DNA from: an uncultured Synergistaceae bacterium
Lineage (GTDB): Bacteria; Synergistota; Synergistia; Synergistales; Dethiosulfovibrionaceae
NCBI GenBank assembly: GCA_964622575.1
Contig: CAZUQW010000009.1
Span: forward strand, 272 to 64,271
Length of the DNA: 64,000 nt
Reading direction: 5' to 3'
The translations under genes and the position numbers were made by a program. Of the stretch, positions 21,333 to 60,745 are shown in pieces. Position 1 is the stretch's first letter, and the number at the start of each line of letters is the position of its first letter. The notes beneath the pieces are model-generated. The model did no database searches. It saw only the letters and a program-made list of their open reading frames with translations, and was not told the origin of the DNA.

Positions 21333-21336
21333 GTTC

Positions 21337-39751: not shown

Positions 39752-39778
39752 TTACATAAACGCCCCTGCGCCCTATAA

Positions 39779-39864: not shown

Positions 39865-39871
39865 TTTTGAA

Positions 39872-40394: not shown

Positions 40395-40577
40395 CTCCAA
40401 TTCACACCAGAGCAGATTTTTTCTCAATGCATAACAGATTGCTTGACAAACAATAATAAAATATATTATTTCACTTTATTCTATGTTGATTGATAATCAA
40501 TGTTGTGCTACAATTAAAAAAACGATGAAAATCGTTAAAAACGTCGGAGAATCTATCTCCAGGAGGTGGCTTTTACG

Positions 40578-42716: not shown

Positions 42717-42744
42717 TTGACATAATATTCATTCATTATATAAT
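42717..42744 (+). promoter_or_regulatory. sigma70 promoter of the DUF819-epimerase operon
   Basis: TTGACA-16-TATAAT in AT-rich intergenic DNA. Confidence 0.7.
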
Positions 42745-42921
42745 AAAAAAAATTGTATTCTTTTATTCACTGCTGCACGTTGCGTAGAGGTAAAAGGATA
42801 TTTTAGTAAGAAAAATTTCTATGGAAAGGAGCATTAGGGAGAAGGTGAGGCCTTTTCTTGCTGGGTGTCCAGGAAAAATCGGGCATATCAAAAAAACGCT
42901 TGAGAAAGGTTGGTGAGTTGT

Positions 42922-44124: not shown

Positions 44125-44153
44125 AAATGTCTTCAGGGTGAGGAGACTAAGAT

Positions 44154-45272: not shown

Positions 45273-45644
45273 TACTATTTATAACACGGAGGCGGTGTTG
45301 TTCTTTCTTGGCAATTGTAATTTTTTCAGTTTGGTCGTTGTGATATGAAGCCTATGTTATGGCTAAGATTTTGCACTGCCTTCGTAAGGTTAGAGCCCTT
45401 TTAAACTTTAATCCTCCTTCGCTAATATAAGGTTTATTTCAAAAACACCTTGTGTTTAGTAAGGAGGATTTTGTTTTATGTTGAAAGCTTTTCAAATAGA
45501 AAGGAAGACAAAAAGGAATCTGTTTTGCAGCTTCTACCAGAATGAAGTTGCAACACGCCTTTCCTGAAGAGAGAAAGCAAGCCATGTCCGAGGAAATTGT
45601 ACAGTTAGGATGAAGAAACCATTGAGAGAGACAAATTAAAAACT

Positions 45645-45816
45645 CATATGCAACGTCCTACAGCGTATATGCGAGTACGTCCTCAAGCATGAAGTGACTC
45701 AAGCAGCGAGGAAATATCAGACTAATTCGTCAGTTTGTCTATCGCCAATTGAAGAAGTAAGACCGAAGCACCAGGCACCTCGCCTTGAAGTCAAGAGAGC
45801 CAAAGGGCAGCTTCAT
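45645..45816 (+). mobile_element. IS481-family transposase relic (N-terminal fragment)
   Basis: DNA clearly homologous to 54860-55030 (gtgactcaagca.cgaggaaata.cagac, cagtttgtc.atcgccaattgaagaag); stops and frameshifts. Confidence 0.75.
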
Positions 45817-45999
45817 TGTTCACATAAGGGCATAGGGCAAATACCGTTATGAATGTGCCATGTTGTCTATAGTGATTGACGTCCTTTCGAGATGATTTTT
45901 GGCAAAACTATTCTAGCGGACTCAATTGTTTTTTCTATCCTCTTGGTCTCACATCTATTGCAAAGCTGCGATCAAAAAAACGTATGCAGGAGGCCTTTT

Positions 46000-46833
46000 A
46001 TGAACAAAAAAATTCCACAGAAAAAGATCTATGAAATTTTGTCTAAACTTGACGGTTCGGTAGGGCTATATATCAATGTCTTAGATACCGAGGAACTTTT
46101 TCAAATTAATCCTGATCGCGTTTTTCCATCGGCTAGTGTAATTAAGATCCCCGTATTGGCGTTGCTGTTAAAAGATGTGTTTGACGGAAAAGTAGACTGG
46201 ACGGAGCCTCGTTCGATTGCTCCGAACAACCGTGTAGGTGGTACGGGGATTCTGACCTATCTGGATAAAACGTACGAGCCATCTGTGTCGGTGTTGGCGT
46301 TCCTGATGATAACTATGAGCGATAACACAGCAACGAACGAGATCATAGATATCATTGGCTTTGATCGTTTCAATCGGTTCTGGAAAGAACAACACTATGA
46401 ACACATTACGCTGATGCGTAAAATGCTTGACCTCGAGGCAATCAAACAGGGACGCAATAACTACATGTGTGCTGGAGAAGCTGGGCGCTTGCTTGTCGAT
46501 ATCGCTACTGGAAAATGTATCAGTAAGAAAGCCTCCGGCATAATTATCGATATGATGCAACATCAGCAATGTTTGAATAAGCTACCGGCGTTATTACCGG
46601 CAATTCCTTCATGGGCTTCAGCAGAAGAACGTCAAAATATGAGCCCTGGTACTGTACTTATAGGCAATAAAACAGGCGATTTAGATGACATTCAGCACGA
46701 TGTGGGGATTTTTACGCTACCTGATGGACGTCGCTATATTATTGCCATGTTTACAGGCGATCTAAAAAATACTAGCGATGGCATTCATGCTATTGCTGAA
46801 GTTTCTCGCGTTGTTTTTGATGCGATGAGGTGA
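46000..46833 (+). CDS. Cytoplasmic class A beta-lactamase-fold serine hydrolase
   Basis: SASVIK (SxxK), SDN, KTG; no signal peptide and no recognisable omega-loop ExxLN; ATG after AGGAGG. Confidence 0.85.
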   Translation: MNKKIPQKKIYEILSKLDGSVGLYINVLDTEELFQINPDRVFPSASVIKIPVLALLLKDVFDGKVDWTEPRSIAPNNRVGGTGILTYLDKTYEPSVSVLAFLMITMSDNTATNEIIDIIGFDRFNRFWKEQHYEHITLMRKMLDLEAIKQGRNNYMCAGEAGRLLVDIATGKCISKKASGIIIDMMQHQQCLNKLPALLPAIPSWASAEERQNMSPGTVLIGNKTGDLDDIQHDVGIFTLPDGRRYIIAMFTGDLKNTSDGIHAIAEVSRVVFDAMR

Positions 46834-47045
46834 GGAATGCTTAGATAGCTCTCGAGGAGAAATCAAAAATTCCGAAAAGGTAGGAAGCTATTAAAAATTG
46901 GGGACTTATTGAGTGTTCATTATAATGTTGTAGCTGTTAGATCATAAACAACATGTAATATGCCTCAATCTAAAACTTAGTTGCGCTAGAAGAGAGATAA
47001 TCATTCAATGTGTTGTATTAAAATAAAGTTTAGGAGGAAGATAGA

Positions 47046-48347
47046 ATGAAAAATATAAGTATGTCTTTTACTGCTGCGGGAGATATGCTTGTTCAACGTC
47101 GACTTCCCGAAAACTACGAGGGTTTCCAAGAAGTCTCTGCGTTTATTAAGCAGGGTGACTGGAGGTATTTCAATCTTGAAACTACAATTAATAAAGGCGA
47201 AGGTTGGGCAAATCAGTATAATGGCGGATCTTATCTCAGAGCGGATGCGGGCGTTCTTGATGATGCTAGAAAATTTGGTTTTAATGTCTTGTCCTTCGTA
47301 AATAACCACTCGCTTGATTTCGGGCACTGGGGACTTTTAGACACAATAGAAGCAGTAAATAAAGCAGGTTTTCCACATGCTGGATGTGGAGAGAATCTTT
47401 CAAAAGCAGCCGCTCCGGCATATCTTGATACAAAACATGGTCGTATAGCCCTGGTTGCGGCAACATCTACTTTAAATGAAGCGTCAATGGCAGGAATGCA
47501 ATCTCGTTGCTTTATTGGGAGGCCTGGTGTTAACGGTCTTCGGCATAAAGAAATTTATCAAGTAACTCCCGATTTGTTTCAAAAGATTAAGGAAATAGCT
47601 CTAGCTACAAGTATTAATGGCTTTGATGATATTTGCAGACATGAAGGTTATCTGCCTTTACTTGAGGAGGGAACCTTTCCTTTGGGTAAACTCATGTTCT
47701 GTGAAGGCGATTGCACAAAGAGAATATCAATCCCTAATGAAGAAGATATGACTAGAATTGAACAGTCAATCTATGAAGCCGAGTTTCAAGCTGATTATAT
47801 TGTTGTAAGTATTCATTCGCATGAAGTGCAAGGTACATTAAAGGAGACTCCTGATGATTTTCTAGTAGAGTTCTGTCATCGTTGTATAGATGCGGGGGCC
47901 GATGCAGTGGTGGGACATGGTCCTCATCTCCTTCGTCCAATTGAGATTTATAAGGGATGTCCTATTTTTTATTCCCTTGGCGATTTTATAATTGAAAACG
48001 AAAACATACCTTATGCGCCTGAGGATATGTATGAAATGTATCATATGAAGTCAGACGCCTTGATGAGAGATGTTTTTAAGAAACGATCAGGAGATTTTAG
48101 GCGAGGCTTGCAAAAAGATCGTCGTGCCTTTGAGACTGTTATACCTTATTGGACTGTAAAGAATGGTGTTCTAAAGCAAATCACATTGCTTCCTCTAGAG
48201 CTTGGTTTTGGGGAACATCGATCAATGAATGGCCTTCCCAAACCAATGAAAAATGCGCCATTTATGGAGAAGTTGCAAGATATGTCGAGAAAATATGGAA
48301 CAGAAATAGTGATGAGAAAAGATGGCCTTGGGGAAATTGTTCTGTGA
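47046..48347 (+). CDS. CapA-family (metallophosphoesterase-fold) protein, cytoplasmic, copy 1
   Basis: AGD, FNLE, NNHSLD, SIHSHE, GHGPH, FYSLGDF; no signal or TM segment. Confidence 0.87.
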   Translation: MKNISMSFTAAGDMLVQRRLPENYEGFQEVSAFIKQGDWRYFNLETTINKGEGWANQYNGGSYLRADAGVLDDARKFGFNVLSFVNNHSLDFGHWGLLDTIEAVNKAGFPHAGCGENLSKAAAPAYLDTKHGRIALVAATSTLNEASMAGMQSRCFIGRPGVNGLRHKEIYQVTPDLFQKIKEIALATSINGFDDICRHEGYLPLLEEGTFPLGKLMFCEGDCTKRISIPNEEDMTRIEQSIYEAEFQADYIVVSIHSHEVQGTLKETPDDFLVEFCHRCIDAGADAVVGHGPHLLRPIEIYKGCPIFYSLGDFIIENENIPYAPEDMYEMYHMKSDALMRDVFKKRSGDFRRGLQKDRRAFETVIPYWTVKNGVLKQITLLPLELGFGEHRSMNGLPKPMKNAPFMEKLQDMSRKYGTEIVMRKDGLGEIVL

Positions 48348-48382
48348 CATGCTTGTTCCTACTGTCGAGAACAGTGTAGTTT

Positions 48383-48950
48383 TGTCAAACATGTTGCACA
48401 ACGAAGTCACAAGGTGAAAGCCAGTGAAGAGGTCGCATAGGAATGTTATTTGAATTACGGTTATGAACTTCCAACTGTTTTTTGAAGTCCGCAAGAGAAT
48501 AGAAGGCATCGGTAGGAATAAAAGCGTTTTTTGATCCTCTCTGTGACTGTGTTCCACTTTCCCACTGTGACTCCGAGAGTAGAGACGGATCAATTTGTGC
48601 GTGATCTTCGGCTCTGTGGTAATTTTCTCAAAAAACGTCAGCAAATTCCGCTTGTTGCTGACGAAACGATCGGAAGTTCAGTGCCATTTTGGTTTGAATG
48701 CATTTCATGGTATTGGTAAGGAAATCGACTGATGTAGTCGAGGACTGTTCTTGATAAGCTCCCAGGAGCCTGAAGCAAGTGAACTCATCAATGGCCGTAT
48801 GTCAAATGTCACTTGGGTTATGGAGATTGAATCGTCGAATTCAATAAGATGAAGCCTATTGTGAGAAGATATCCATACCTGACACGTTTGGGACAGGCTT
48901 CGCTCTGGTTGTGTTATGATATTCCTGTCTTTTGATGACACCATGCTTCC
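48383..48950 (-). mobile_element. IS481-family transposase relic (catalytic and C-terminal part, frameshifted)
   Basis: TAIDEFTCFRLLGAYQEQS, HKLIRLYSRSHSGKVEHSHREDQ, DFKKQLEVHN...MRPLHWLSP in several frames. Confidence 0.75.
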
Positions 48951-49358
48951 ACAGGTGGTCTGAAGCGGACTTGTGCGCTTTCACAAGCCCGCTTTTTTGT
49001 TCTTTGTCTGCCCCTTTGTTTCATTCTTATCCTCGTCGGAAGCAACTCGATTTGCTCTTTTGATCTCCTTTAGAGCAATGCGTTTACCCTTGCAGACAGC
49101 CCAGAATTGCTCGCTTAATATTTTACGCACAAGAGGCATCCCCTTCATTTCGCTGAAATCATCACCAATAACAGGCGCATACAGCGTAATATTGGCGTTC
49201 TTACACCCATGAAGAAGCACAATCTATATTTTATTGCATAAAAGAATGCAGACTCCCGTCGGATGTTGTAGCATCAAACTGGAATCTGCATTGCTACAGC
49301 AACGAAGTGCTGTAAACTTTCTTTTAATTATTTCATTGTCCCCTTGACAAGAGAATTT

Positions 49359-50858
49359 TTAATTAATGTTGCCTACCAATGTGGAAGCCCAAGGGCTGTT
49401 GCCGAAATCTCGGGCGTCGCAGTCCTTCTGCTTGAAGAAAGGAGCGCGTCGGCCTTTCATGACCTGCTCAAAGGCGTAAGCCGCCTTGATCAGAAGGGGC
49501 TCGCCAAAGGGACGCCCCACGAAGGTCAGGCCGAAAGGCATTCCGTCGGCCAGGAAGCCGACGGGAACGACGATTGAAGGATAGCCTGAAATGGGTGCTG
49601 CGTCAGATATTCCCGGCGTCACGTAGACGTCTACGCCAGCTTGATTCATAACGCGGTCAACGCCGTTATCGCGGGCTTTTTTCAAATAGGCCACGCGGTT
49701 GCGCAGGTATTCAGGCTCAATCAGGCGCCCCGTGCTTTTCTGCAACGTGTCCAAAAGGATGGACTGGCCGTATTTCAGTCCCAGGTCAGGGCGCTCGTTG
49801 TTGAGGTCCACAATGTCCTTCAACGTTTTTGCTCGCGTTTTTGGGCTGCATGTTGACAGATAGTAATTTATGCTCTGCTTGAACTCGTAGAATTTCACCT
49901 CGTAGTCGCAACGGAGCCGCGGCAAGTCACAGCCGTAAACCAAAAAGGCGCCTGCTTTTTCGAGAGCAGCGTAGGCCTTTTCGCCCAGTTCTTTCTGTTC
50001 GTCGCTTAGTTCAACGTAGGTTCCTTTATTGACGCCCACTTTCAATCCTCTAAGACCATTGGCATCGAGGAACTGGCGGTAGTCATCGTAAATTTGGCCG
50101 TCGCGGTTCCATGTGGAGGGATCGCGTTTGTCAGTTCCTACGATGATTCCCAGAAGCGCCGCCGCGTCCTCGACAGTTCGGGCGATCACACCGGCCACAT
50201 CCTGCGCTGTTGTGATGGGGATAATGCCGTAACGGCTGACCGTGCCCAGCGTGGGCTTGATACCTACAACGCCGTTGTTGTGCGCCGGCCATATGACCGA
50301 TCCGTTTGTCTCCGTGCCCAAGGCACCCATGCAGAGGTTTGCCGAAACGGCAACGGCAGAGCCTGAACTGGAGCCCCAAGTGTTGCCCTTGGGGTTATAA
50401 GGACTGATGACCTGACCACCACGGCTGCTGTAACCGTTTTTCATCTGCTTGGTCATGTAGTTGGCGAACTCGGTCATGTTTGTTTTGCCCAGGATGACAG
50501 CTCCGGCCTGCCTCAGCCTTGTGACAACCGTTGCGTCGTAGGGCGCAAAATTGTCTGCCAGTGTGATGGATCCAGCGCTGGTGTGCATTTTGTCGTGAGT
50601 GTTGAAGCAGTCCTTCACCATGATCGGCACGCCGTGCAGTATGCTCCGCGGTCCCTTGAGCTTTAGCTCTCGGTCCATAGCCTCAGCGATGAACAGAGCA
50701 TCAGGATTTATTTCGATGACCGAGTTGAGCTTGGGACCCGACTGGTCAATGTCGGCAATGCGTTCCAGGTAGGCTGCCGTGAGGTCGAACGACGTGAGCT
50801 CTCCTGAGTCAAAGGCGGCTTGCACTTGGCTGAGCGTAGCTTCTTCAAGTGTGAACAT
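49359..50858 (-). CDS. Amidase signature family enzyme
   Basis: LHGVPIMVKD, GKTNMTEFA, WGSSSGSAVAVSA, GTETNGS; start ATG 50858. Confidence 0.92.
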   Translation of the reverse strand: MFTLEEATLSQVQAAFDSGELTSFDLTAAYLERIADIDQSGPKLNSVIEINPDALFIAEAMDRELKLKGPRSILHGVPIMVKDCFNTHDKMHTSAGSITLADNFAPYDATVVTRLRQAGAVILGKTNMTEFANYMTKQMKNGYSSRGGQVISPYNPKGNTWGSSSGSAVAVSANLCMGALGTETNGSVIWPAHNNGVVGIKPTLGTVSRYGIIPITTAQDVAGVIARTVEDAAALLGIIVGTDKRDPSTWNRDGQIYDDYRQFLDANGLRGLKVGVNKGTYVELSDEQKELGEKAYAALEKAGAFLVYGCDLPRLRCDYEVKFYEFKQSINYYLSTCSPKTRAKTLKDIVDLNNERPDLGLKYGQSILLDTLQKSTGRLIEPEYLRNRVAYLKKARDNGVDRVMNQAGVDVYVTPGISDAAPISGYPSIVVPVGFLADGMPFGLTFVGRPFGEPLLIKAAYAFEQVMKGRRAPFFKQKDCDARDFGNSPWASTLVGNIN

Positions 50859-50881
50859 CTGAAAATCCCCGCTTTCGTGTC

Positions 50882-52036
50882 TTAAAGTTTTCGATTTAAA
50901 AAGTAGCCGGCGAACAAAGTGACGGCCGTTTCCAAGCACCCTTCCTGGGGGATAAAGTGGTCGCTGTGCAGCGGGTAGGGACAGTCGCAGCCCATGAAAC
51001 AATAAAGCGACGGAACTTCAGAGCAGAACGCCGAAAAGTCCTCGCCGATCATACTGGGAGTGATGTCCAGTTTGACTTTTTCATCGCCCAGATAGGCCGC
51101 CGCGAAGCCTGAGAACGCTTCATAAAGCCCTCTGTTGTTCTTCACGATCCCAAAGCCGCTGTCCAGAATGACCTCGGCGCTGCCCCTTTCGGCTTCGGCG
51201 ATGTGGTGCACGATCTCGGGAATCCGGGTGCGCACGTGATCGCGGCTCTGAGCATCAGTGGAGCGTATGGTCCCTTCCAGCGTCACATGGTCACAAATCA
51301 CGTTGTAGCGCCCAGTGGAGTTAAAACTCCCAATAGAGACCAGCGACCCCGCAAAAGGCGAAACCTCTCTTTTGAGACGGCAGACCAGCGCCGTGTAAAT
51401 CTGTGCGGCGATAGAAATGGCATCTACGCCCAGGTGTGGCTCCGCCGCATGGGATTTTTTCCCCCGGATCTCAATGCGGAAATGATCCGACGCCCCCATC
51501 AGCGTTCCCGCTCGAAGGGCAATCGTCCCTACGGGAAGTGACGGCCAGACGTGCATGCCGTACATCTCCGCGATATTCAGTTTTTTCAGGAATCCCGTTT
51601 CTATAACGGGTCTGGCGCCGCCGCGAGGGTTGCATTCCTCTGCTGGCTGGAAAAGAATCGCTACGTTGCAGTGCAAGTATTGTCTGTTTTGATTCAAGGC
51701 GACGGTCAATCCAGCGCCGACGGAGGTATGCATGTCGTGTCCGCAGGCGTGCATAATTCCCGGCGTCTGGGAGGCAAAATCCACACCCGTGTTCTCCGTC
51801 AAAGGTAGGGCGTCAATATCGCAGCGGAAACCGAGTGTCCTGGGGGCGCCGATGTCGATCATGGCGTAGCCACCCGTGAGGTTGTCGAAGCGGTAGAAGG
51901 CCACGCCGCGGTCCTGTAAAAATTTCTCAATCCTATCAGTCGTGTGTTTCTCCGCGTAGCCAAGTTCGGGATAACGGTGGATGTCTTTTCTAAATTCTTT
52001 CAGTTCCTGTAATAACTCTGGTGAAAGGCTGAACAT
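50882..52036 (-). CDS. M20D amidohydrolase (hippurate hydrolase-like)
   Basis: HRYPELG, RCDIDALP, MHACGHD, FQPAEE, GEDF, LHS; start ATG 52036. Confidence 0.9.
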   Translation of the reverse strand: MFSLSPELLQELKEFRKDIHRYPELGYAEKHTTDRIEKFLQDRGVAFYRFDNLTGGYAMIDIGAPRTLGFRCDIDALPLTENTGVDFASQTPGIMHACGHDMHTSVGAGLTVALNQNRQYLHCNVAILFQPAEECNPRGGARPVIETGFLKKLNIAEMYGMHVWPSLPVGTIALRAGTLMGASDHFRIEIRGKKSHAAEPHLGVDAISIAAQIYTALVCRLKREVSPFAGSLVSIGSFNSTGRYNVICDHVTLEGTIRSTDAQSRDHVRTRIPEIVHHIAEAERGSAEVILDSGFGIVKNNRGLYEAFSGFAAAYLGDEKVKLDITPSMIGEDFSAFCSEVPSLYCFMGCDCPYPLHSDHFIPQEGCLETAVTLFAGYFLNRKL

Positions 52037-52065
52037 ACTGTAACTCCTGTCTCTGTCCAATAATA

Positions 52066-52097
52066 AAAAGGGCCGCTCACCTCAAGAGAGAGCGGCC
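52066..52097 (-). terminator. Terminator-like hairpin between transporter and M20 gene
   Basis: ggccgctc...gagcggcc with T-run on minus strand. Confidence 0.5.
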
Positions 52098-52105
52098 TCG
52101 AATCG

Positions 52106-53407
52106 TTATGCCGCGTAAATCAGAGCGCGGATAAATACGTAGATAAAGGTGATAATTGTGATAACCCAACCGTTTTTCAACATGGCCTTGATGTCGTTGG
52201 AACGGGCGAGTCCCATCTGTCCAACCATGTCCACGGTGGGCGTAACGAAAAAGGTAATCTGGCAGGCAACTAGGACGACCAGTGACCAGATACCCATCTG
52301 GATGCCCATGCTCTTGACCAGGGGCAGGAACAGCTCGTGGGTGATCTGAGCCTGAGCGACACCGGCGCCGGAAATTCCAAATACGCCGATGGCGGAACTG
52401 ATCATAAGGAATGCCGCGTCGCCGCCCTTGTCGATCAGGGGCTGCATGTAGTCTGCAATGGCATTAAAAGCGCCCGATTTGGCGACGTAGTTTAGGAAGG
52501 GATCGAAGAGCACGAACATGAAGAACATCCAGTACATCTTAGAGCTTCCCTTGACAAGAGCCTTTAGAGAGTCCGTCAGTCCCATTCCGGCGGCAATGCC
52601 CGTGGCGAGCGCCGCTGTCAGCATGACCACGATAGCGTAAGACGCGCCGGCGTGTGCGTAGATGCCGTAGGCCAGCATGAGTGCCATGACCGTGAGGAAT
52701 GTCAACGTGGCGCGTTTGATCTGAGGTGTAACTTTGAAGTCCGTGGCCACTGTGTCCGCTTCAGAGTAGGAAATTTTGCCTTCCGTGAGCTTTTGAGTGC
52801 GACATGCCACGAAGAACGTGCTGCCCCATACGATAATCGCCAGAGGAATGCCCGCGTTGAGCAGGAACTGGCCGTAGCTCAGCCCTGTAAGGCCCATGAT
52901 GGTGACAACGGGGGGGACAAAAGGGCCAATGTAGAGGCCCGTGGCGCCCGCGCCGTGGAGGATAACGCCTAGAGTGCTCGGGGTGATCCCTAAGCTGGCC
53001 ACGATAGGAATGATGATGGGAGCGATAATGGCGTTGGATCCAGCCAGAGTTCCGAGCATGCTCACCAGAACGGTGGAAGTAAGCATTGCCACCAAGATGG
53101 CCTGTTTTTTCGATCTCAGCTTGCTGCGGCCGATAACGTAGTGAACGATGTTATGGGCCACTCGAGTCTCGCTGAGCACCTCGCCCAGACCGGCGCCGAG
53201 AACGATGATAAAGCCGATCAGTGACAGGAAAGAACTCAGAGACTTCTGGAGCACCGCACCGAACCCCGTAACGCTCTCACCGGTCAGCACGGCCCCCAAA
53301 ATGACGCAGAGCAACACCGACACGTTCATATCCTTGCCACGAAGCATCAGAACGATGTAGAGCAGCAGGGGCAAAAAACCTAAGATTGGCGGTAAATCAA
53401 AAATCAT
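52106..53407 (-). CDS. Ion-transporter-superfamily permease (NhaC/GntP-like), putative amino acid/peptide uptake
   Basis: About 12 hydrophobic segments; GFIIVLGAGLGEVL, GLYIGPF; start ATG 53407 after AGGAGG. Confidence 0.75.
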   Translation of the reverse strand: MIFDLPPILGFLPLLLYIVLMLRGKDMNVSVLLCVILGAVLTGESVTGFGAVLQKSLSSFLSLIGFIIVLGAGLGEVLSETRVAHNIVHYVIGRSKLRSKKQAILVAMLTSTVLVSMLGTLAGSNAIIAPIIIPIVASLGITPSTLGVILHGAGATGLYIGPFVPPVVTIMGLTGLSYGQFLLNAGIPLAIIVWGSTFFVACRTQKLTEGKISYSEADTVATDFKVTPQIKRATLTFLTVMALMLAYGIYAHAGASYAIVVMLTAALATGIAAGMGLTDSLKALVKGSSKMYWMFFMFVLFDPFLNYVAKSGAFNAIADYMQPLIDKGGDAAFLMISSAIGVFGISGAGVAQAQITHELFLPLVKSMGIQMGIWSLVVLVACQITFFVTPTVDMVGQMGLARSNDIKAMLKNGWVITIITFIYVFIRALIYAA

Positions 53408-53513
53408 CCTCGTGCCTCCTAACTCAATAATGTACAAGGAAAAAAACATAAAGGAAAGAGATCTTTCCATCTCCTTGCATTATCCATTATGAGACGGGGG
53501 CTTCCTTTTTGTC

Positions 53514-53551
53514 AAATAGTTACTATTTATACTTGCATAACATGAGGTTAT
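53514..53551. promoter_or_regulatory. Two palindromes upstream of the transporter, candidate LysR sites
   Basis: AAATAG-tta-CTATTT (53514-53528) and ATAAC-N5-GTTAT (53537-53551, T-N11-A). Confidence 0.5.
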
Positions 53552-53707
53552 ACTTTCAAATAGTGAAGTTATTTGATTCTTGTAATGTAGCTTTATTCTT
53601 CTAAAAGCCCGAAGCTGCTCGCTTTTTTCTGTTTCTTTTCTTGGACGCGTTCCAACAGTGGAGACGAAGTTTAGCGTCTTTATTTATTTTTGTTGATTGG
53701 CGGCGGA

Positions 53708-54601
53708 TCAACCAAGGCATTCTTTGAACAGTTCAATAAAAGGCCGGGCCGAACGGGGCAGGTAACCATTCTTTCTGTAGGCAGCCGTGACAGGATTGAC
53801 AAAGCGTTTGTCGATGACGTAATAGTCGGGCTCTTTCTCGCAGTGGAAATTGTTCTTCACGAGAGAGCTGACAAAGGTCATTCCCATGCCAGCAACGCAG
53901 AGTTTGACCGCGGCTGTAGACATTTGAGTCACGTACTCCACATGGGGCACAATGCCGTATTCAGAAAAAATTGTGTCGGCCATCATGCGAAAACGCTGGT
54001 CATGGTGCAGTAGCACGAATTTCATCATGTCAGGCCTGAGGTGCTTCAAGGCGAACTCAAAGGTGTGTGGCCCCTCAGGCAGGTAGCCTGGCGGCGTGAC
54101 CAGATAAAACCGTTCATTTTTAAGCAGTTCGTGGGTGATCTGCGGCAGGTGGGGCGCCCCGTCCATGATGATAAAATCTAGCTTGCCGCGTAGCAGGCGA
54201 TCCATCAGTTCTGAGCTCTTGCCCTCGGTCACGCTAACTCTGATGCCTCTATAGCGGGCGGAGAACAGAGGCAACGCCTTTGGAATGGCCAGGAGGGCCT
54301 GCGCCACTGTGACGCCTACGCGGAGCATTCCCACTTCCATATCCTGCAATTCCTTTTTGTAGAGCTTTAGGTCTTCCGCGAGATTCAAAATAATCTGAGC
54401 GTTGGTGACGTATTTTTCGCCGTATTCAGTCAGAGAGATGGGTGTGGTGCTCCGGTCGAAAATGGGACGGTTCTCTTCCTTTTCTAGGACGCTGAGGAAT
54501 TTGCTCAGAGTGGGTTGAGAAATATGCAGCCTCTGGGCGGCTCTTGTGATGTTGCCTTCCTCGTAAAGAGCTATGACATACCGCAATTCGCGAAAATCCA
54601 C
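53708..54601 (-). CDS. LysR-family transcriptional regulator
   Basis: DFRELRY...NITRAAQRLHISQPTLS; GTG start 54601 after AGGAGG. Confidence 0.92.
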   Translation of the reverse strand: MDFRELRYVIALYEEGNITRAAQRLHISQPTLSKFLSVLEKEENRPIFDRSTTPISLTEYGEKYVTNAQIILNLAEDLKLYKKELQDMEVGMLRVGVTVAQALLAIPKALPLFSARYRGIRVSVTEGKSSELMDRLLRGKLDFIIMDGAPHLPQITHELLKNERFYLVTPPGYLPEGPHTFEFALKHLRPDMMKFVLLHHDQRFRMMADTIFSEYGIVPHVEYVTQMSTAAVKLCVAGMGMTFVSSLVKNNFHCEKEPDYYVIDKRFVNPVTAAYRKNGYLPRSARPFIELFKECLG

Positions 54602-54744
54602 GTTCCAACCTCCTTTTTCTCTCCAGTTTCTCTTTATGATATCAGAAAAACCACATAATATCAGAAAAAACCACAGGAAAAAATGGAGAATGACGGCTGC
54701 CGGCACGCGAAAAATCCGCGCGCTTTTTTGGCCCTGTTGTAATA

Positions 54745-55322
54745 TGTTAAGACAAGTGTTACAGAAACGGCGTAAAAATAAAGAGAGCCTCTGGTACACT
54801 GGATTCGGCCCAAAATCGACCGTACAGAGGAGGCCCTCATGAGCATTATAACCGAAGAAATGCGACATCGCCGGCGTTTATGCGAGTATGCCCTCAAACA
54901 TGGAGTGACTCAAGCAACGAGGAAATACCAGACCAACCGGCAGTTTGTCCATCGCCAATTGAAGAAGAATGACGGAAGCGTCAGAAGTCTCGTTCTGAAG
55001 TCAATAAAGCTGAAAAGCACTCCCACCGCCCACACTGAAAAAGAAGGGCCCTTTTAACAGATTGCTCAAGAACTGGGGATAGATCTCAAGAGGATTCGTC
55101 CCTATTCGCGCCCGGCAGAACGGCAAGATGTGGAAAGAAGCCATCGAGAAGATGGGAAGATCTTGTATGGACATAAGGTGTTCACCAGCGAGAAAGATTT
55201 GATAAAGCAACTGGCAAAGCACGAAAGACGATACAACAAAACAACAAAAACGGTTCTTGTTTTTAAAAGCCCGAATCAAATTGGAGCAGAGTTTTTCTCA
55301 AAACGTAACATATGTCTTGACA
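54745..55322 (+). mobile_element. Internally deleted IS481-family element (578 bp) with both terminal inverted repeats
   Basis: IRL tgttaagacaagtgttac (54745-54762) and IRR gtaacatatgtcttgaca (55305-55322), 15/18, TGT...ACA ends; transposase N-terminus (54839, HGVTQATRKYQTNRQF) joined to C-terminus (RPY...VERSHREDG...YN...KSP). Confidence 0.82.
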
Positions 55323-55500
55323 ACTAAGTCGCGGGCAACTCGTGCATAGCTTCATGCCTTGCCATGCCTCGGACTTTCAGGCATAATGGAAAAATGATGA
55401 TGTGAAGGGCACGTTCCTTCGATTGATGTTGCGAAAGGTCGACGGATTGTGCTTGGGAATTCCTCGGTTGAGGATTGTGTATCGAAAGGACGGCAAGGCT

Positions 55501-56712
55501 GTGGAAAAAATCAAAGGTGAGATTATCTCTGCAATCGACGCTGCATCCGATGATCTGAAAAAACTGGCGTTGGACATTCATGACAACCCGGAGCTGGGCT
55601 GGCATGAATTCAAAGCTGTGGAATTTATCAGGGCATTTCTTGAAAAATACGGCTTTACCGTTCAGTCGAATTATAAGAACATTCCTACGTCGTTCCGAGC
55701 GGATTTCGAGGGACGGTCGGGGCGGCCTCGCGTGGCTTTTCTCGCGGAGTACGACGCGCTCAACGGCTGTGGCCACGGTTGTGGTCACAATTTGATCGCG
55801 GCGTGTTCTGCGGGCGCTTTTCTTGGCCTTGCGTCGGTGATAAAAGGACTTCAGGGCAGCGTCTGCCTTATCGGCACGCCGGCTGAAGAGGGCGGTTCCG
55901 GCAAGGTGAAGCTGTTGGACCGCGGCGCCTTCGATGACGTGGATTTCGCGCTGATGATGCACCCCTCTTCCGGCGGGGAAAGTGCCAACATTGTCGGTCG
56001 CGGCGGGCGGGCTGCCGCCGGCATGACGGTGGAATTTCACGGAAAGGCGACTCATTCGTCGGTGCCGAAAAACGGCATCAACGCGCTAAGTGCCTTGATT
56101 CATCTTTTTAACCAGATCGATCTGATGCGGCCGACCTTTGACCCGCAGGACAACATCAATGGCATTATTACCTGCGGCGGCACAGCGGCCAATATTATTC
56201 CCGATTATGCCAGTGCGTCTTTCTGTCTCCGCTCCGAAAGGATGAGCCGCGTTAACGAGCTGATGGAGCTTGTTGAAAGCTGTGCCGCCAACTCGGAGAA
56301 ACTCACTGGCGCCAAGGCCACGGTAAGCCGCGACGATGTCTCCGCCGAGCGCTATCCCAACAAGCCGATGAATCAGGCGTTTAAGGACAATATGGAGCTG
56401 TTGGGCATCAAGATGAACTGGCCCGACCCGAAGAAACAATACGGCTCTTCGGACATCGGCAACGTTTCCATAAAAATCCCCATTATTCATGACTACCTTT
56501 CGATTACCGACGACCCAATGCTTCAGGCTCACTCCAAGGAATTTGCGGCGGCGGCAGGAACTCCCGAGGCGCTCGAAGTCTGTCTCAAAGGCGCCCAAGG
56601 TCTGGCCATGACGGGCTGTGACATTTTGCTGCGTCCTGAGTTTCAGCATGAAATTGTCGAATACCACAGAGCGCAGATTCCTGAATTTTATAAAAAAGGT
56701 GAGGATGCCTGA
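55501..56712 (+). CDS. M20 peptidase/amidohydrolase (AbgB/ACY1L2-like)
   Basis: HDNPELG, AEYDAL, HGCGHNLI, GTPAEEGG, MMHP, GSSDIGNVS, HS; GTG start. Confidence 0.88.
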   Translation: MEKIKGEIISAIDAASDDLKKLALDIHDNPELGWHEFKAVEFIRAFLEKYGFTVQSNYKNIPTSFRADFEGRSGRPRVAFLAEYDALNGCGHGCGHNLIAACSAGAFLGLASVIKGLQGSVCLIGTPAEEGGSGKVKLLDRGAFDDVDFALMMHPSSGGESANIVGRGGRAAAGMTVEFHGKATHSSVPKNGINALSALIHLFNQIDLMRPTFDPQDNINGIITCGGTAANIIPDYASASFCLRSERMSRVNELMELVESCAANSEKLTGAKATVSRDDVSAERYPNKPMNQAFKDNMELLGIKMNWPDPKKQYGSSDIGNVSIKIPIIHDYLSITDDPMLQAHSKEFAAAAGTPEALEVCLKGAQGLAMTGCDILLRPEFQHEIVEYHRAQIPEFYKKGEDA

Positions 56713-57977
56713 TGTACCACGTGAGCGAAAAAAAGAAAGCTCTGTTCCAGCGGTTGCTGTCGCTGGAACAGGTCGGACGTCTGTTGAAATTTATCGAGGA
56801 TGACCAGCGCCGCTCCATTGAAGAGCAAAAGGAACTGACGCTCATTGAAGCGCCGACGGGGCACGAAGACCGGCGCGCCCAAGTCTTTGCCGACAAGCTG
56901 CGTGCTCTGGGGCTGGAAAACGTCCACCGCGATCGGGGTGGCAACGTGGTTGCGCTGCGTCGCGGCAGCGGCAGAGGTCCCAAGGTGCTTATAGAAGGCC
57001 ATTTGGACACGGTTTTTCCCTTCGGGACGGTGAAATCGGTAGAGGAGCGCGACGGATTTCTCTACGCGCCGGGCATCGGCGACGACACCCGCGCTCTGGC
57101 CATGCTGCTTTCTCTCGTACGGGGACTTGCGGCCTGCGGAGTGGAAACCGAGGGCGATGTCCTCTTTGTGGGAACCACCCGTGAGGAAGGCATGGGCGGA
57201 CTGGGCGGCATGAAAGATTTTCTCGAGGACAACGGCGACATTGATATCTCTTTGAGCGTCGACAACAATGACATGAGCGCCATTGTCTATCAGGCGACGG
57301 TGAGCGGAACCTGGGAATTTACCTTTCACGGCAAGGGCGGGCACGCCTACGGCGCCTTCGGCGAGCTGGCGCAGCCCCTTCACGCGGCGGCGCGGGTCGT
57401 GGCGGAAATTGCCGATTTCCAGGTGCCGACTCAGCCCAAAACCACGTTTTGCGTCTCCAACTTTCACGGCGGCAGCGACGCCGGCGTTCATGCCATTGCG
57501 GCGGAGGCGTCAATCAAGGTGAACCTTCGGTCCAACAGCGCAGAAGAGTTCGCCCAACTGAAGAAAAAGGTCTTCGACGCCGTGCAAAGAGGCGCCGCCA
57601 CCGAAACGGCGCGTTGGGGAAAGAACGAGATCACTGTCACGTCGCGGCAGCTCTGCGACATTCCCGGCGGCAGCCAGGACCCTCACATGCCGCTGGTGGA
57701 GGGAGCATGGATGGCGCTGGACTTCCTCGGCGTGGAGCCTTCTCTGGCCGAAGGCGGCAGCACGAACGCCAACAGAGCCATCGGAAAGGGAATTCCCGCG
57801 CTGTGTTTGGGACGGGCATACGCGCCCGACGAGAACTCCCGCAAAATCCACAATCACAGCCTCGACGAGAAGTACCCGGTGAAGGGTGCCTTCAAAGCTG
57901 TGCAGCTCGCGGCACTGATGCTGCTCATGGCTGCCGGCGTTAAAGGCGAAACCGGCTCCATCATGGATGAGGGCTGA
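56712..57977 (+). CDS. M20/M25/M40 metallopeptidase (peptidase T/ArgE-like)
   Basis: EGHLDTVF, APGIGDD, TREEG, GGHAYG, GSTNAN, NHSLDE. Confidence 0.88.
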   Translation: MYHVSEKKKALFQRLLSLEQVGRLLKFIEDDQRRSIEEQKELTLIEAPTGHEDRRAQVFADKLRALGLENVHRDRGGNVVALRRGSGRGPKVLIEGHLDTVFPFGTVKSVEERDGFLYAPGIGDDTRALAMLLSLVRGLAACGVETEGDVLFVGTTREEGMGGLGGMKDFLEDNGDIDISLSVDNNDMSAIVYQATVSGTWEFTFHGKGGHAYGAFGELAQPLHAAARVVAEIADFQVPTQPKTTFCVSNFHGGSDAGVHAIAAEASIKVNLRSNSAEEFAQLKKKVFDAVQRGAATETARWGKNEITVTSRQLCDIPGGSQDPHMPLVEGAWMALDFLGVEPSLAEGGSTNANRAIGKGIPALCLGRAYAPDENSRKIHNHSLDEKYPVKGAFKAVQLAALMLLMAAGVKGETGSIMDEG

Positions 57978-57982
57978 CGGCC

Positions 57983-59278
57983 ATGGGGACCACTTTTATC
58001 GCCACAGGCGATACTTTTATCACCCGTCGGATTCCCCAGGGGGGATATGACGGCTGCGCCGCCCTTTCTGAGCTGATCAAGCGCCATGACCTGCGTTTTA
58101 CCAATCTGGAAATGACGTTTCACCGAAGGGAAGGCGTTCCAGCTGCCGTCAGCGGCGGTACGTGGGCCATGGCCGATCCTGTCCTGTTGGACGACCTGTG
58201 CCGCATGGGCTTCAACATTTTCAACACTGCCAACAACCACTCCTGTGATTACAGCCATGGCGGCCTTCTGGCCACCATCAAACATCTGAACGAACGGGAC
58301 ATGATCTTCTCGGGAACGGGAAAGGACTTGGGCGACGCCTCGAAAGCCTGCTATTTTGAAGCCCCCAATTCCCGCGTGGCGCTGATCGGAGCGTGTGCCA
58401 CCTTCGCCCCGTCGGCTGCAGCCGGCGCGCAGTCTGCCCATATTGTCGGACGTCCCGGAATCAATCCCCTGCGCTTTGTCAGATATTATCATCTGGACCG
58501 GGCACATTTCGAAATGGTGCAGGAGCTCATCAGAGTTTCAAAGATCAATGCCGAAGAGGAGTACGTTATCAAAACGGGCTATAAAAATCCGCCACAGGCG
58601 GGAACGCTGCCGCTGGGCAAGGGCCCTCTTTTTGTCCTCGATGACAGAAATTGGATCGAGAGCTTTCCCGACGAGCGCGACATGAAGCGCATCACCGCCG
58701 AAATCTCCGAGGCAAAAAAGCAGGCCGACACGGTGATGGTCAGCATTCATGCCCATGAATACGACGGTGACGACATCAACGTCCCCGCGCAGTTCATCGA
58801 GAAGTTCGCCCGAGGCTGCATCGACGCCGGCGCCAGTGTGGTTATCGGACACGGCCCCCATCTGATTCGCGGCATTGAGCTGTACAAAGGCGGCGTAATT
58901 TTTTACAGCTTGGGAAATTTTATTTTTGAAACGGAAACCGTGGAGTTCCAGCCGTGGGACGCCTGCTTCAACAAAGGCCTGCCGCCCGACACCGGCGTAG
59001 GGGCCTACATGGACAATCGAAGCAAAAACGGCACCGTAGGCTATGGGACGTTGCCCGAAATCTGGGAAGCTTTTATGGCGTCGTGGGAAATCGACGACGG
59101 CGCCTTGAAAAACATTGAGATTTATCCGCTGTCGCTGGGCATGGGAAGCCCTCGTTCCCACAAAGGCGTGCCAGTGCTGAGTCATGACGAAAAACTACTG
59201 CGCCGCCTTGCTCGTTTGAGCGAACCCTACGGCACCGAACTGGTGATTGAAAACGGCAGAGCGTCCGTGAGAATTTGA
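57983..59278 (+). CDS. CapA-family protein, cytoplasmic, copy 2
   Basis: TGD, TNLE, ANNHSCD, SIHAHE, GHGPH, FYSLGNF; colinear with 47046-48347. Confidence 0.87.
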   Translation: MGTTFIATGDTFITRRIPQGGYDGCAALSELIKRHDLRFTNLEMTFHRREGVPAAVSGGTWAMADPVLLDDLCRMGFNIFNTANNHSCDYSHGGLLATIKHLNERDMIFSGTGKDLGDASKACYFEAPNSRVALIGACATFAPSAAAGAQSAHIVGRPGINPLRFVRYYHLDRAHFEMVQELIRVSKINAEEEYVIKTGYKNPPQAGTLPLGKGPLFVLDDRNWIESFPDERDMKRITAEISEAKKQADTVMVSIHAHEYDGDDINVPAQFIEKFARGCIDAGASVVIGHGPHLIRGIELYKGGVIFYSLGNFIFETETVEFQPWDACFNKGLPPDTGVGAYMDNRSKNGTVGYGTLPEIWEAFMASWEIDDGALKNIEIYPLSLGMGSPRSHKGVPVLSHDEKLLRRLARLSEPYGTELVIENGRASVRI

Positions 59279-59341
59279 GACGGCCGAAAAGCGCATGATT
59301 GCGCCCATTGGAGCGGCGCGAGATCGGACAAAGGAGAGAAC

Positions 59342-60745
59342 GTGATGAACTGCACAGAAAGGCTGAAGCGGCGCTTTGAAAGCGGCGCCGCCGCGCTGAA
59401 AGACTACCTTGAAAAGATCATGGCGACCCACGACGCGCGCGGCATGGCCGTGGCCGTCATTGACGCCCACGACACGGTTTTGCAGGATTTTTTGGGCCTG
59501 CGGGACGCCGAGCGCGGCCTTCCCATCGACGAAAACACGCTGTTTGGCCTGGCGTCGGTGACAAAATCCTTTACGGCGCTCAGCGTCATGCAGCTGGTGG
59601 AGCGGGGAGCCGTTGACCTCTGCGCGCCGCTGGCCGACTCCATTCCCGAGTTTCACAATCTCCATCAAAAAACAGTGACGGCGGCGCACTTTCTGAGCCA
59701 CACGGGAGGCTATTACCCGCGGCCGCGGGCGCTGCTTTCCGATCTTCTGAAAAAGCTGTCCATCGACGCTTCCAAGGAAGAAGTGGCCTACGACGACCGC
59801 GTGGCTCAGGCCGCCGTGGAAGAAGTGGCTTCAGGGCTTGACGCCGACGAGCCGCGACTTGCGGCGCCCGGTCGCATGATGAGCTACTGCAACGACGGCT
59901 ACGGCTTGTTGTCCGACTTGATCCGCCGCAAGGGCGGCGAAGGAAGCTATGCCGCCTGGGTGGACAAACACATCCTCGAACCACTGGGCATGAAGCGGAG
60001 CACCTGCCGATTTCTTGCCCCGTCGCAGGACGCCAACGCGGCAAAGCTTTACACCGACCACAGCGCCGACTGGGACTACACCCGTGAGGCCTTTGTGCTC
60101 AACGGTGGCGGCGCCATGAAATCCACACTGGCCGACATGAAAAAGTATCTGCGAATGTACCTCAACCGCGGTGCCTTTGAGGGCGGACGGCTTGTTTCCG
60201 CCGAAAGCGTCGCCATGATGGTTCAGCCGCGCGTTGCCACAAAATTCGGCACAACCTACGGTTTCGGCCTGATGACCACGCAGATGGGGGATCTCACCGT
60301 TCACCGCCACGGCGGAAGTTTGCCCGGCGTGTCGTCCCACATCGCCTGGTCGCCCGAACTGGGCGCCGCGGCCATTGTGCTCTGTAACACCGAAAACGTT
60401 CCCGTTGGCATTGCTGCCGACGCTCTGCTGCGCGTCGCCGCCGGATGGCCTGTCGAGGCTGAGGATCGCTGGATCGACGAGCCGTGGGACGACGACGTGA
60501 TCCGTCGCGCCTGCGGTACCTATCGTTCTGGCGAGGGCGCCTGCTTGATCATCGGCCGCAAGGGCAAGGGAATTTCCGTGCTTGACGGCGGCAAAAAAGT
60601 TTCGTGCCGCACAGTGCGCGGCGCCAGAGCGCTTTTGACTCGCGGCATGGCCGTGTCGGAAGTTCATCTGCTTTTCGACGGAGATGGAGAAGTCTACGCC
60701 GTGCGGCTCAACGACCGCGTGATCCCCCGCATTCAGGAGCGATAG
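59342..60745 (+). CDS. Class C beta-lactamase/AmiE/D-aminopeptidase-like serine hydrolase, cytoplasmic
   Basis: LASVTKSF (SxxK), SYCNDGY (YxN), HGGSLPG; no signal peptide. Confidence 0.87.
   Translation: MMNCTERLKRRFESGAAALKDYLEKIMATHDARGMAVAVIDAHDTVLQDFLGLRDAERGLPIDENTLFGLASVTKSFTALSVMQLVERGAVDLCAPLADSIPEFHNLHQKTVTAAHFLSHTGGYYPRPRALLSDLLKKLSIDASKEEVAYDDRVAQAAVEEVASGLDADEPRLAAPGRMMSYCNDGYGLLSDLIRRKGGEGSYAAWVDKHILEPLGMKRSTCRFLAPSQDANAAKLYTDHSADWDYTREAFVLNGGGAMKSTLADMKKYLRMYLNRGAFEGGRLVSAESVAMMVQPRVATKFGTTYGFGLMTTQMGDLTVHRHGGSLPGVSSHIAWSPELGAAAIVLCNTENVPVGIAADALLRVAAGWPVEAEDRWIDEPWDDDVIRRACGTYRSGEGACLIIGRKGKGISVLDGGKKVSCRTVRGARALLTRGMAVSEVHLLFDGDGEVYAVRLNDRVIPRIQER

Follow-up and report, generated by a model that had tools for sequence, protein, structure and literature searches.

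Two soluble CapA-family proteins of a Synergistaceae bacterium are candidate MslH-type epimerases in peptide-catabolic gene clusters

Two genes in a 64,000-nucleotide stretch of DNA from an uncultured Synergistaceae bacterium (contig CAZUQW010000009.1, positions 272 to 64,271; hereafter the window) encode soluble proteins of the CapA family, which we call CapA1 and CapA2. We propose that both are cytoplasmic peptide epimerases of the MslH type, using one metal ion (Ca/Mn), and that they act in peptide catabolism and not in capsule or lasso-peptide synthesis; we give this proposal a probability of roughly 55%. We infer the epimerase activity, the direction of the reaction, its substrate and the order of steps from homology, residue conservation, fold, gene linkage and transcription, each of which is set out below.

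An earlier, sequence-only reading of this DNA described two CapA proteins without membrane anchors, each adjoining a beta-lactamase-fold hydrolase of a different class, one pair in an AT-rich module and the other in a GC-rich one. Our analysis bears this out. Open reading frame (ORF) listing and Pfam scans place a PF13354 class-A-like hydrolase gene followed by CapA1 in module 1, and module 2 is a tight four-gene operon (M20a, M20b, CapA2 and a PF00144 hydrolase) with intergenic gaps of -1, 5 and 63 bp and a promoter-like site at 55359-55387, ahead of M20a. The genes of module 1 have a GC content of 40-43% against 54-62% for those of module 2. The genes of the two modules are as follows.

46000-46833, plus strand: class-A-like serine hydrolase, predicted cytoplasmic, 277 amino acids (aa) (PF13354, 191 bits)
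47046-48347, plus strand: CapA1, soluble MslH-like PGA_cap protein, 433 aa (PF09587, 190 bits)
55426-56712, plus strand: M20a, M20 amidohydrolase of the TIGR01891 type, first gene of module 2 (PF01546 and PF07687; TIGR01891, 213 bits against a cut-off of 154)
56712-57977, plus strand: M20b, M20/M28 exopeptidase (PF01546, PF07687 and PF04389)
57983-59278, plus strand: CapA2, soluble MslH-like PGA_cap protein, 431 aa (PF09587, 179 bits)
59342-60745, plus strand: S12 / PF00144 serine peptidase, predicted cytoplasmic, 467 aa (PF00144, 179 bits)

CapA1 and CapA2 are relatives of the epimerase MslH

CapA1 and CapA2 are colinear, with 37% identity over 422 residues, two gaps and an E value of 1e-98. 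Both contain the motifs GD, NLE, NNH, HxHE and GHGPH, and both match PF09587 far above its cut-off of 27 bits. A sequence search of the Protein Data Bank with CapA1 returned only five entries, all of them MslH, with E values of about 1e-63 (8GQ9, E 2e-63, over residues 11-433). MslH is the epimerase of the C-terminal Trp in the lasso-peptide precursor MslA, and its structures have been solved; the two reports describe a calcineurin-like fold, a single Ca(II)/Mn(II) held by E44, N87, H259 and H261, and an acid/base pair formed by the opposed dyads H88/D91 and H295/D11, with Ala or Asn variants of these four dyad residues all devoid of epimerase activity (PMC8179263, PMC10406935). All eight catalytic and metal-binding residues are kept in CapA1 (D13, E45, N87, H88, D91, H257, H259 and H294) and in CapA2 (D10, E43, N85, H86, D89, H256, H258 and H293), and the eight positions are invariant across 64 homologues.

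The predicted model of CapA1 (pLDDT 94.1, pTM 0.93) superposes on MslH 8ITG with template modelling (TM) scores of 0.93 and 0.92 and a root-mean-square deviation of 2.3 Å over 438 columns, G- and C-subdomains included; the next-best fold, that of YmdB, gives a TM score of 0.36. MslH is itself soluble, about 435 aa long and colinear with both window proteins over their full length, and has the same GRPG(L/V/I)N loop. The sole NCBIfam match of either protein is epimerase_MslH (NF038314), at 235.3 bits for CapA1 and 246.0 bits for CapA2. Because these scores lie far under the equivalog cut-off of 700, we regard the two as relatives of MslH and not as its orthologues. BLASTP matches CapA2 at 100% identity to a protein of a Pyramidobacter sp. 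metagenome-assembled genome (MAG), although the exact sequence of CapA2 is not on record; the window organism is probably a Pyramidobacter.

The internal RPG(V/I)N insertion that the sequence-only reading had seen in this colinear, motif-sharing pair also has a counterpart in MslH. The GRPG(V/I)N stretch lies within a segment of about 72 residues that the archetypal capsule CapA (B. cereus pBFI_2) does not have, and corresponds to GRPGLN in the G-subdomain of MslH (residues 141-234), which helps to shape the peptide-binding cleft (PMC8179263, PMC10406935). The capsule proteins PgsA/CapA of capBCA/pgsBCA have in common with the window proteins PF09587 and the motifs GD, NxE, NNH and GHxPH. Unlike the window proteins, the archetype has an N-terminal anchor and always stands with capB and capC: peak 19-residue Kyte-Doolittle hydropathy is 2.44 in that anchor (residues 25-43) against 0.94 in CapA1 and 1.31 in CapA2, in which the catalytic GD begins as early as residue 12 and residue 9, respectively, so that neither protein has an anchor. 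By tblastn, only the first 150-180 residues or so (34-41%) of CapA1 align with the archetype, at about 26% identity. The archetype (L088:3324-4541) also lacks a counterpart of MslH H261, since HWGE replaces HSHE.

A predicted one-metal site argues for epimerization

The soluble CapA proteins had been taken in the sequence-only reading for binuclear metallohydrolases, on the understanding that the chemistry of CapA was not established. That understanding is outdated: MslH is a proven epimerase (PMC8179263, PMC10406935), its discoverers proposed CapA/PgsA as the epimerase that makes D-Glu in poly-gamma-glutamate (PMC8179263), and in B. subtilis with pgsBC and without pgsA the polymer has a D/L ratio of 5/95 instead of 75/25 (PMC6029982). 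All functional data for the family concern stereo-inversion, not hydrolysis. Two residues after the motif-I aspartate, CapA1 has L15 and CapA2 has F12 in place of a histidine, and the GDxxDR of motif II is replaced by NLE in both. In MslH, the same two replacements leave the second metal site empty (PMC8179263, PMC10406935), and for that reason a binuclear centre is unlikely. What both proteins do keep is the one-metal site and the two His/Asp dyads.

A hydrolytic role has nevertheless to be weighed, in which the soluble CapAs would be metal-dependent amidases, peptidases or phosphoesterases, possibly binuclear, that cut the same substrate as their neighbours. The calcineurin-like fold is consistent with this, as are distant Foldseek matches to YmdB, 5'-nucleotidase and purple acid phosphatases, the conserved Asn-His pair of a GNH(D/E)-type motif (NNH) with a downstream Asp and His ligands, and the fact that every neighbour is a hydrolase. 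On the other hand, both proteins share with MslH the lack of the DxH histidine of motif I and of the GDxxDR of motif II, the sole biochemically characterised member of the family is an epimerase (PMC8179263, PMC10406935), and the genetics of PgsA is tied to D-Glu content and not to hydrolysis (PMC6029982). The loci already hold two to four hydrolases, and in most of these loci there is no other stereo-inverting enzyme. We therefore think a hydrolase unlikely; an epimerase is better supported than a binuclear hydrolase because of the full-length match to MslH, the eight conserved residues and the missing motif-I histidine.

CapA genes adjoin M20 peptidases in diverse bacteria

To characterize the neighbourhoods of related genes, we scanned a single genome for each GTDB species, which gave at least 586 loci, and took the best 80 with 8-kb flanks. 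ORFs in this census came from an ad hoc script and were labelled by phmmer with the window proteins and by Pfam, and enrichment was measured against more distant ORFs in the same loci, within 8 kb. The 80 loci span Clostridia, Bacilli, Synergistaceae, Bacteroidota, Verrucomicrobiota, Kiritimatiellae and Alphaproteobacteria. By phmmer, an M20 gene adjoins CapA in 38 of the 80, always on the same strand (38/38) and with a median gap of 7.5 bp; the M20b type accounts for 26 of these 38 genes and is the commonest neighbour type. M20 is the upstream neighbour in 27 of 76 loci and the downstream neighbour in 15 of 74, and its enrichment within two genes of CapA is strong (odds ratio 12.3, p = 3e-13). 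Peptide ABC transporter components lie within five genes of CapA in 21 of the 80 loci.

Serine hydrolases are rarer. PF00144 genes lie within two genes of CapA in 6 of the 80 loci (odds ratio 11.6, p = 0.008), and a PF13354 gene lies within five genes in a single locus (L079) and within two genes in none. The sequence-only reading had these CapA proteins working with D-stereospecific serine hydrolases. That link survives in part: it is non-random, and the nearest solved relatives of the two hydrolases, PBP-A and Pab87, fit it, but the main partner is M20 (38 loci against 6). The neighbourhoods are neither random nor dominated by capBC, since M20 and PF00144 are enriched and capBC is present in 0 of the 80 loci.

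The same reading had noted the lack of capB and capC, and here it was right: phmmer searches with archetypal CapB and CapC found neither in the 64-kb window nor in the 80 loci with their 8-kb flanks. Lasso precursor, B1/B2 protease and C cyclase families are likewise missing from the window and from the census neighbours. MslH differs from the window proteins in this respect, as CapA1 and CapA2 have no lasso cluster and instead have M20, PF00144, PF13354, amidase, permease and LysR genes around them. These observations bear on a biosynthetic role, in which the CapAs would give a secreted or ribosomal peptide, or a polymer like poly-gamma-glutamate, its C-terminal D-residue. The family has been characterised in two contexts, MslH and PgsA, and each is biosynthetic (PMC8179263, PMC6029982). 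Against this, capB/capC and any lasso cyclase, protease or precursor-type family are absent from the surveyed neighbourhoods, neither protein carries a membrane anchor, and the genes around them encode importers and exopeptidases; we regard a biosynthetic role as highly improbable. We rejected capsule or poly-gamma-glutamate synthesis in particular on the lack of capB/capC and of an anchor and on the partial alignment of the archetype with CapA1, and a lasso or other ribosomal-peptide setting on the gene families of the neighbours.

A simple neighbour-joining tree places the archetypal CapA as a distant outgroup and MslH outside the entire soluble (catabolic) clade, with CapA1 and CapA2 in two deep subclades. 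R133, N191, Y202 and R237 are invariant in the clade and differ in MslH. At least four separate parts of the tree have PF00144 partners.

Conserved arrangements around both CapA genes

The remaining genes and features around the two modules are listed here in order of position.

42910-44124, plus strand: DUF819 membrane protein, putative transporter, upstream of module 1 in a low-GC stretch (PF05684, 196 bits; 42% GC)
44154-45272, plus strand: enolase-superfamily epimerase of the dipeptide-epimerase / N-acyl-amino-acid-racemase type (PF13378 and PF02746)
49359-50858, minus strand: AS-family amidase, convergent with CapA1 (PF01425, 279 bits; NF005300, 547 bits against a cut-off of 494)
50882-52036, minus strand: M20c, M20 amidohydrolase of the aminoacylase / carboxypeptidase CpsA type (PF01546 and PF07687; TIGR01891, 302 bits against a cut-off of 154)
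52106-53407, minus strand: permease of the ion-transporter superfamily (weak Pfam matches to Na_H_antiporter, GntP and DcuC)
53708-54601, minus strand: LysR-type regulator (PF00126 and PF03466; the gene is also called in the independent contig L096)
60754-60794, no strand assigned: strong hairpin terminator with a 19-bp stem, at the shared end of module 2 and the convergent amidohydrolase gene
60845-62032, minus strand: amidohydrolase-superfamily protein, convergent with module 2 (PF01979 and PF07969)

The arrangement of module 2 recurs in other genomes. The full order M20-M20-CapA-PF00144 with the convergent amidohydrolase gene is present in a relative of 73% identity and in the window's matching contig from the Pyramidobacter MAG; the amidohydrolase gene, for whose window copy no NCBIfam model is above its cut-off, has the same place in L089, L091 and L092, and M20a has a gene call of 428 aa in L089. 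M20-CapA-PF00144 with short gaps is kept in L053, L054, L060, L091 and L092, and M20b-CapA-PF00144 stands 3' of an Opp-type transporter in Pilosibacter fragilis, Clostridium sp. OF03-18AA and bacterium 1XD42-76. In the Hungatella locus L079, one strand carries Opp, M20a, M20b, CapA, M20, a class-A-like gene and an enolase-type dipeptide epimerase.

Module 1 is more variable. Among six close relatives of CapA1 (60-70% identity), three have a class-A-like gene in the cluster, in two gene orders: AraC-CapA-permease-class-A-like, and class-A-like, small ORF, RpiR, permease, CN_hydrolase, M20, CapA. The other three have no class-A-like gene in view and show AraC-permease-CapA-M20 or AraC-peptide-binding-protein-CapA. 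The window holds the gene set of these relatives spread over two strands, with the class-A-like gene and CapA1 convergent on amidase, M20c, permease and LysR (49359-54601). A TIGR01891-type M20 gene, the type of M20c, adjoins CapA in L097 and L098, and the window permease is 36% identical (E 3e-93) to L083:6613-7944, beside a close CapA1 relative.

Some details of these loci are of interest in themselves. The gene between CapA1 and M20c in the window is that of an AS-family amidase, whereas L097 and L098 have a CN_hydrolase gene between permease and M20 (L097:6922-7746 and L098:6889-7713), so that non-homologous genes have been swapped at this position of the operon; the CN_hydrolase shows a likeness, under the cut-off, to deaminated-glutathione amidase. 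Directly 3' of the class-A-like gene in the same two loci is a conserved ORF of 152-172 aa without a Pfam match (L097:3847-4365 and L098:4144-4602). Two adjacent CapA-like ORFs in L062 and in L075 may represent a duplication or a frameshift, and L066 and L077 come from one MAG, with CapA1-like and CapA2-like copies on separate contigs. Given these paired ORFs and the two-copy MAG, several CapA paralogues per genome are not unusual.

Comparable settings are found on plasmids. An archaeal one, from Haladaptatus caseinilyticus (L095), encodes a full-length CapA homologue of 34% identity near D-aminoacylase, alanine racemase, amidohydrolase and creatininase-family genes; on a Rhizobium plasmid, a dipeptide ABC transporter, CapA and an Xaa-Pro peptidase follow in a row, and another annotated plasmid has a Met transporter, an ArgE/DapE deacylase and CapA.

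Partner enzymes resemble peptidases acting at peptide C-termini

The class-A-like protein contains the motifs S46xxK (SVIK46), S107DN and K224TG. The start codon of its gene is ATG 46000, preceded at six bases by AGGAGG, and nearly all of its homologues are 273-278 aa long (range about 252-360 among the 120 listed); from the start backed by this ribosome-binding site and from the homologue lengths we conclude that the protein has no signal peptide. A longer form starting at 45892, with a lipoprotein-like signal, was rejected, as no ribosome-binding site precedes that start and the homologues have lengths of about 277 aa. Its best solved relative is PBP-A of Thermosynechococcus (2J7V, E 2e-25), a DD-peptidase. 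We rejected a class A beta-lactamase on the bla_class_A score of 93.7 bits against a cut-off of 200 and the lack of a secretion signal.

The PF00144 protein, with the motifs S72xxK, Y182xN and H323GG, has as its best solved relative Pab87 (2QMI, E 2e-30), the match being limited to the catalytic domain (residues 19-376). By hydropathy it has no hydrophobic N-terminus or signal peptide. Pab87 is a cytoplasmic, D-stereospecific peptidase that acts on muropeptides as a DD-carboxypeptidase, removing terminal D-Ala. A class C beta-lactamase was rejected here too (bla_class_C, 70.2 bits against a cut-off of 415, over residues 18-126 only).

For M20b, which has no NCBIfam model above its cut-off, the best solved relative is the poly(aspartic acid) hydrolase PahZ2 (7LJH, E 7e-57, nearly full length), an enzyme that frees Asp from oligo-aspartate with alpha or beta links (PMC13017698). 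M20a and M20c belong to the TIGR01891 aminoacylase/carboxypeptidase subfamily, which acts at the C-terminus. The enolase-type epimerase at 44154-45272 is closest among solved structures to the dipeptide epimerase 3JVA (E 2e-60) and the L-Ala-D/L-Glu epimerase 1JPM (6e-56), with NCBIfam scores under the equivalog cut-offs. A free peptide C-terminus, which is where MslH reacts, is the site of action or a requirement for three kinds of partner: the M20 enzymes of the aminoacylase/carboxypeptidase type, the serine hydrolases resembling DD-carboxypeptidases, and the dipeptide epimerase.

An RNA contig joins CapA2 to its serine peptidase gene

To assess expression, we used two RNA-seq runs of one study, in which depths are low and DNA carry-over is possible. 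RNA contigs of 100% identity cover parts of DUF819 (42846-43235), the enolase-type epimerase, CapA1 (46841-47880), amidase, M20c, permease, M20a, M20b, CapA2 and the PF00144 gene, and one contig (59150-59549) bridges the junction of CapA2 and PF00144. In these two runs no RNA contig lies over the class-A-like gene, and the 5' contig of CapA1 begins eight bases past the class-A-like stop codon.

These data touch on another interpretation, according to which the serine-hydrolase link is incidental. The real unit would then be transporter, M20 and CapA, with the class-A-like gene and the enolase-type epimerase belonging to a separate murein-peptide pathway and PF00144 merely common in peptide-catabolic islands. 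The small number of loci with PF00144 or PF13354 within two genes of CapA points that way, as do the three close CapA1 relatives with no class-A-like gene in view, the class-A-like gene of L079, which overlaps the dipeptide-epimerase gene by 4 bp and not CapA, and the RNA contig of CapA1 that starts past the stop codon of a gene with no contig of its own. However, PF00144 is enriched around CapA and joins it on at least four branches of the CapA tree, M20-CapA-PF00144 is kept with short gaps in five loci, a single RNA contig bridges CapA2 and PF00144, and PF13354 shares a cluster with CapA in the three other close CapA1 relatives, in two orders. We consider an incidental link quite unlikely, and keep the serine peptidases among the partners of the proposed epimerases.

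Origins of the two modules

The sequence-only reading also held that the pairing of CapA with a serine hydrolase was assembled twice independently. Two independent origins hold, in that each module has a history of its own: CapA1 and CapA2 belong to two deep subclades, the partners are of different classes, and module 1 sits in a low-GC segment. "Assembled twice" applies only loosely, as the arrangement of module 2 is kept in relatives, which makes it an inherited, conserved operon that was not put together in the window genome.

Around module 1 we found direct repeats, and a true gamma-glutamyltransferase gene lies to its left.

40566-42275, plus strand: gamma-glutamyltransferase, just left of the low-GC stretch (TIGR00066, 620 bits, above cut-off)
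45663-45809, plus strand: left copy of the direct repeat, a possible decayed insertion-sequence fragment with frames broken by stops
54874-55330, plus strand: right copy of the direct repeat and a possible remnant of a transposase (rve-type integrase) C-terminus, at the right end of a strain-variable segment

The repeats (45663-45809 and 54874-55019) are about 81% identical over some 138 nt, lie 9210 bp apart and bracket 9.2 kb with the class-A-like gene, CapA1, amidase, M20c, permease and LysR. Translations of the repeat region are riddled with stops and weakly resemble a transposase helix-turn-helix (HTH) and rve integrase; Pfam support for an insertion-sequence remnant amounts to sub-threshold matches (rve_3, 14.9 bits; HTH_29, 14.1 bits). 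In three metagenomes the repeat element has a depth of 30-45x against about 10x for the flanks (3-4x). At the edges of the low-GC stretch itself (42.3 and 49.2 kb) we found no flanking repeats, and the only tRNAs are at 39.7-39.9 kb, a Thr/Tyr/Thr cluster at 39676-39947. The GC jump at about 49 kb does not stem from a chimeric assembly, since an independent 9118-bp Logan contig (L096) spans the class-A-like gene through LysR.

The runs that contain the window sequence are bioreactor metagenomes. In a second bioreactor sample, the flanks of the window are present at 96-99% identity and about 10x depth, whereas 42.5-54.7 kb (DUF819 through LysR) is matched by no contig of more than about 190 bp, even at 80% likeness. 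One contig of that sample runs through the gamma-glutamyltransferase gene to 42485, continues with 34 unrelated bases and then with 26 bases equal to 55331-55356. This fits a strain without the 12.8-kb segment (42486-55330), though the joint is thin; a JGI contig with the same P0121 protein variant as the Logan contig of that sample follows the window for 123 further bases, to 55208. Exact-sequence look-ups of gamma-glutamyltransferase and CapA2 for island-free variants found nothing on record. On the missing contig match and the bracketing repeats, module 1 appears to be part of an accessory and probably mobile cassette.

Two further observations concern the wider window. The gene after that of CapA in the cap operon encodes CapD, a transferase of the same family as the gamma-glutamyltransferase at 40566-42275. 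A cobalamin biosynthesis cluster at about 17400-25600 (CbiA/CobQ-type amidotransferase, tetrapyrrole methylase/HemD fusion, CbiJ and CbiG) is unrelated to the CapA genes. No riboswitch or other RNA family was found in 42-61.5 kb.

Discussion

How might a soluble CapA protein serve peptide catabolism? Small peptides or N-acyl-amino acids would enter the cell by the permease of the ion-transporter superfamily, by DUF819 and, in relatives, by Opp/Dpp-type ABC systems. In CapA1, the free C-terminal carboxylate of such a compound would bind the metal at E45, N87, H257 and H259, and the dyads H88/D91 and H294/D13 would take and return the alpha-proton from opposite faces, interconverting D and L forms of the last residue. 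The co-transcribed M20 exopeptidases and aminoacylases, presumed to be L-specific, could then release the epimerized residue and so pull the equilibrium, leaving other D-containing bonds to the PBP-A-like and Pab87-like serine peptidases, the amidase and the enolase-type dipeptide epimerase. Cassettes of this kind might let an amino-acid-fermenting anaerobe fully digest peptides with D-residues, such as cell-wall fragments.

Several points weigh against this proposal. Conserved residues cannot alone separate an epimerase from a hydrolase, because they are common to the metallophosphoesterase scaffold. Identity to MslH is about 35%, and the NF038314 scores of 235-246 bits compare with a cut-off of 700. 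The substrate of MslH is a 21-residue precursor in a large cleft, and its peptide-contacting F228 aligns with R226. Module 1 and L079 already hold an enolase-type dipeptide epimerase, so that a second epimerase might look redundant. The stereospecificity of the M20 enzymes is assumed, and the census covers the best 80 of at least 586 loci with ad hoc ORF calls.

Known systems offer parallels for the individual steps. The dipeptide epimerases YkfB/YcjG (L-Ala-D/L-Glu) work with a dipeptidase, are tied to peptide uptake and act through a metal-stabilised enolate at the residue with the free carboxylate, and N-succinyl-amino-acid racemase together with an L-specific M20 desuccinylase forms a route from D- to L-amino acids. 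The enolase-superfamily epimerases follow the same logic as that proposed for CapA on an unrelated fold, a TIM barrel as opposed to the calcineurin-like fold, without homology; module 1 and L079 contain a gene of this kind. At the Pab87 locus of Pyrococcus abyssi, the neighbours are a dipeptide ABC transporter and a D-aminoacylase, and digestion of environmental D-peptides has been proposed. Pab87 is, like the PF00144 protein of module 2, an S12 peptidase, and it has an extra C-terminal domain; no CapA-like gene has been reported in its locus.

A further parallel is the PahZ system, in which no epimerase is known. Its substrate, poly(aspartic acid), contains both D- and L-Asp units when made thermally, and PahZ1 is not known to have the beta-lactamase fold. 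PahZ1 and PahZ2 pair a serine hydrolase with an M20/M28-type exohydrolase on an acidic polymer with alpha- and beta-amide links (PMC13017698). Unlike the window enzymes, which are predicted to be cytoplasmic, the PahZ enzymes are periplasmic. The PahZ2-like M20b, the anion-carrier-type permease and the gamma-glutamyltransferase at 40566-42275 hint at acidic substrates ending in Glu or Asp.

A wider form of the proposal, which we put forward tentatively and hold to be somewhat less probable than not, extends this to the large CapA/MslH branch as a whole, with its thousands of proteins and at least 586 hits in the GTDB species genomes. The branch might constitute a third, non-homologous class of primary-metabolic peptide epimerases, translationally coupled to a PahZ2-like M20 exopeptidase and acting on small acidic peptides that end in D/L-Glu or D/L-Asp, possibly gamma- or beta-linked, with poly-gamma-glutamate fragments, muropeptide stems and isoaspartyl peptides as sources. 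If so, anaerobes of the gut and of bioreactors would gain a route to ferment D-residue peptides, and the role of membrane-bound PgsA would be shown by proxy.

We would describe CapA1 and CapA2 as a new, catabolic variant of the MslH type with a putative epimerase function; a search of the literature, which may miss subscription papers, found no catabolic CapA that has already been characterised. If the proposal is correct, the label "capsule biosynthesis protein CapA", which thousands of genes in anaerobes bear, would be wrong for this clade. The clade would represent an unrecognised catabolic use of MslH chemistry, in which C-terminal epimerization is coupled to hydrolysis by M20 enzymes, and would explain how amino-acid fermenters use the D-amino-acid peptides of cell walls. 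Its members would also be new C-terminal peptide epimerases for biocatalysis and, being soluble and readily expressed, would provide models for the role of PgsA in the synthesis of D/L-poly-gamma-glutamate.

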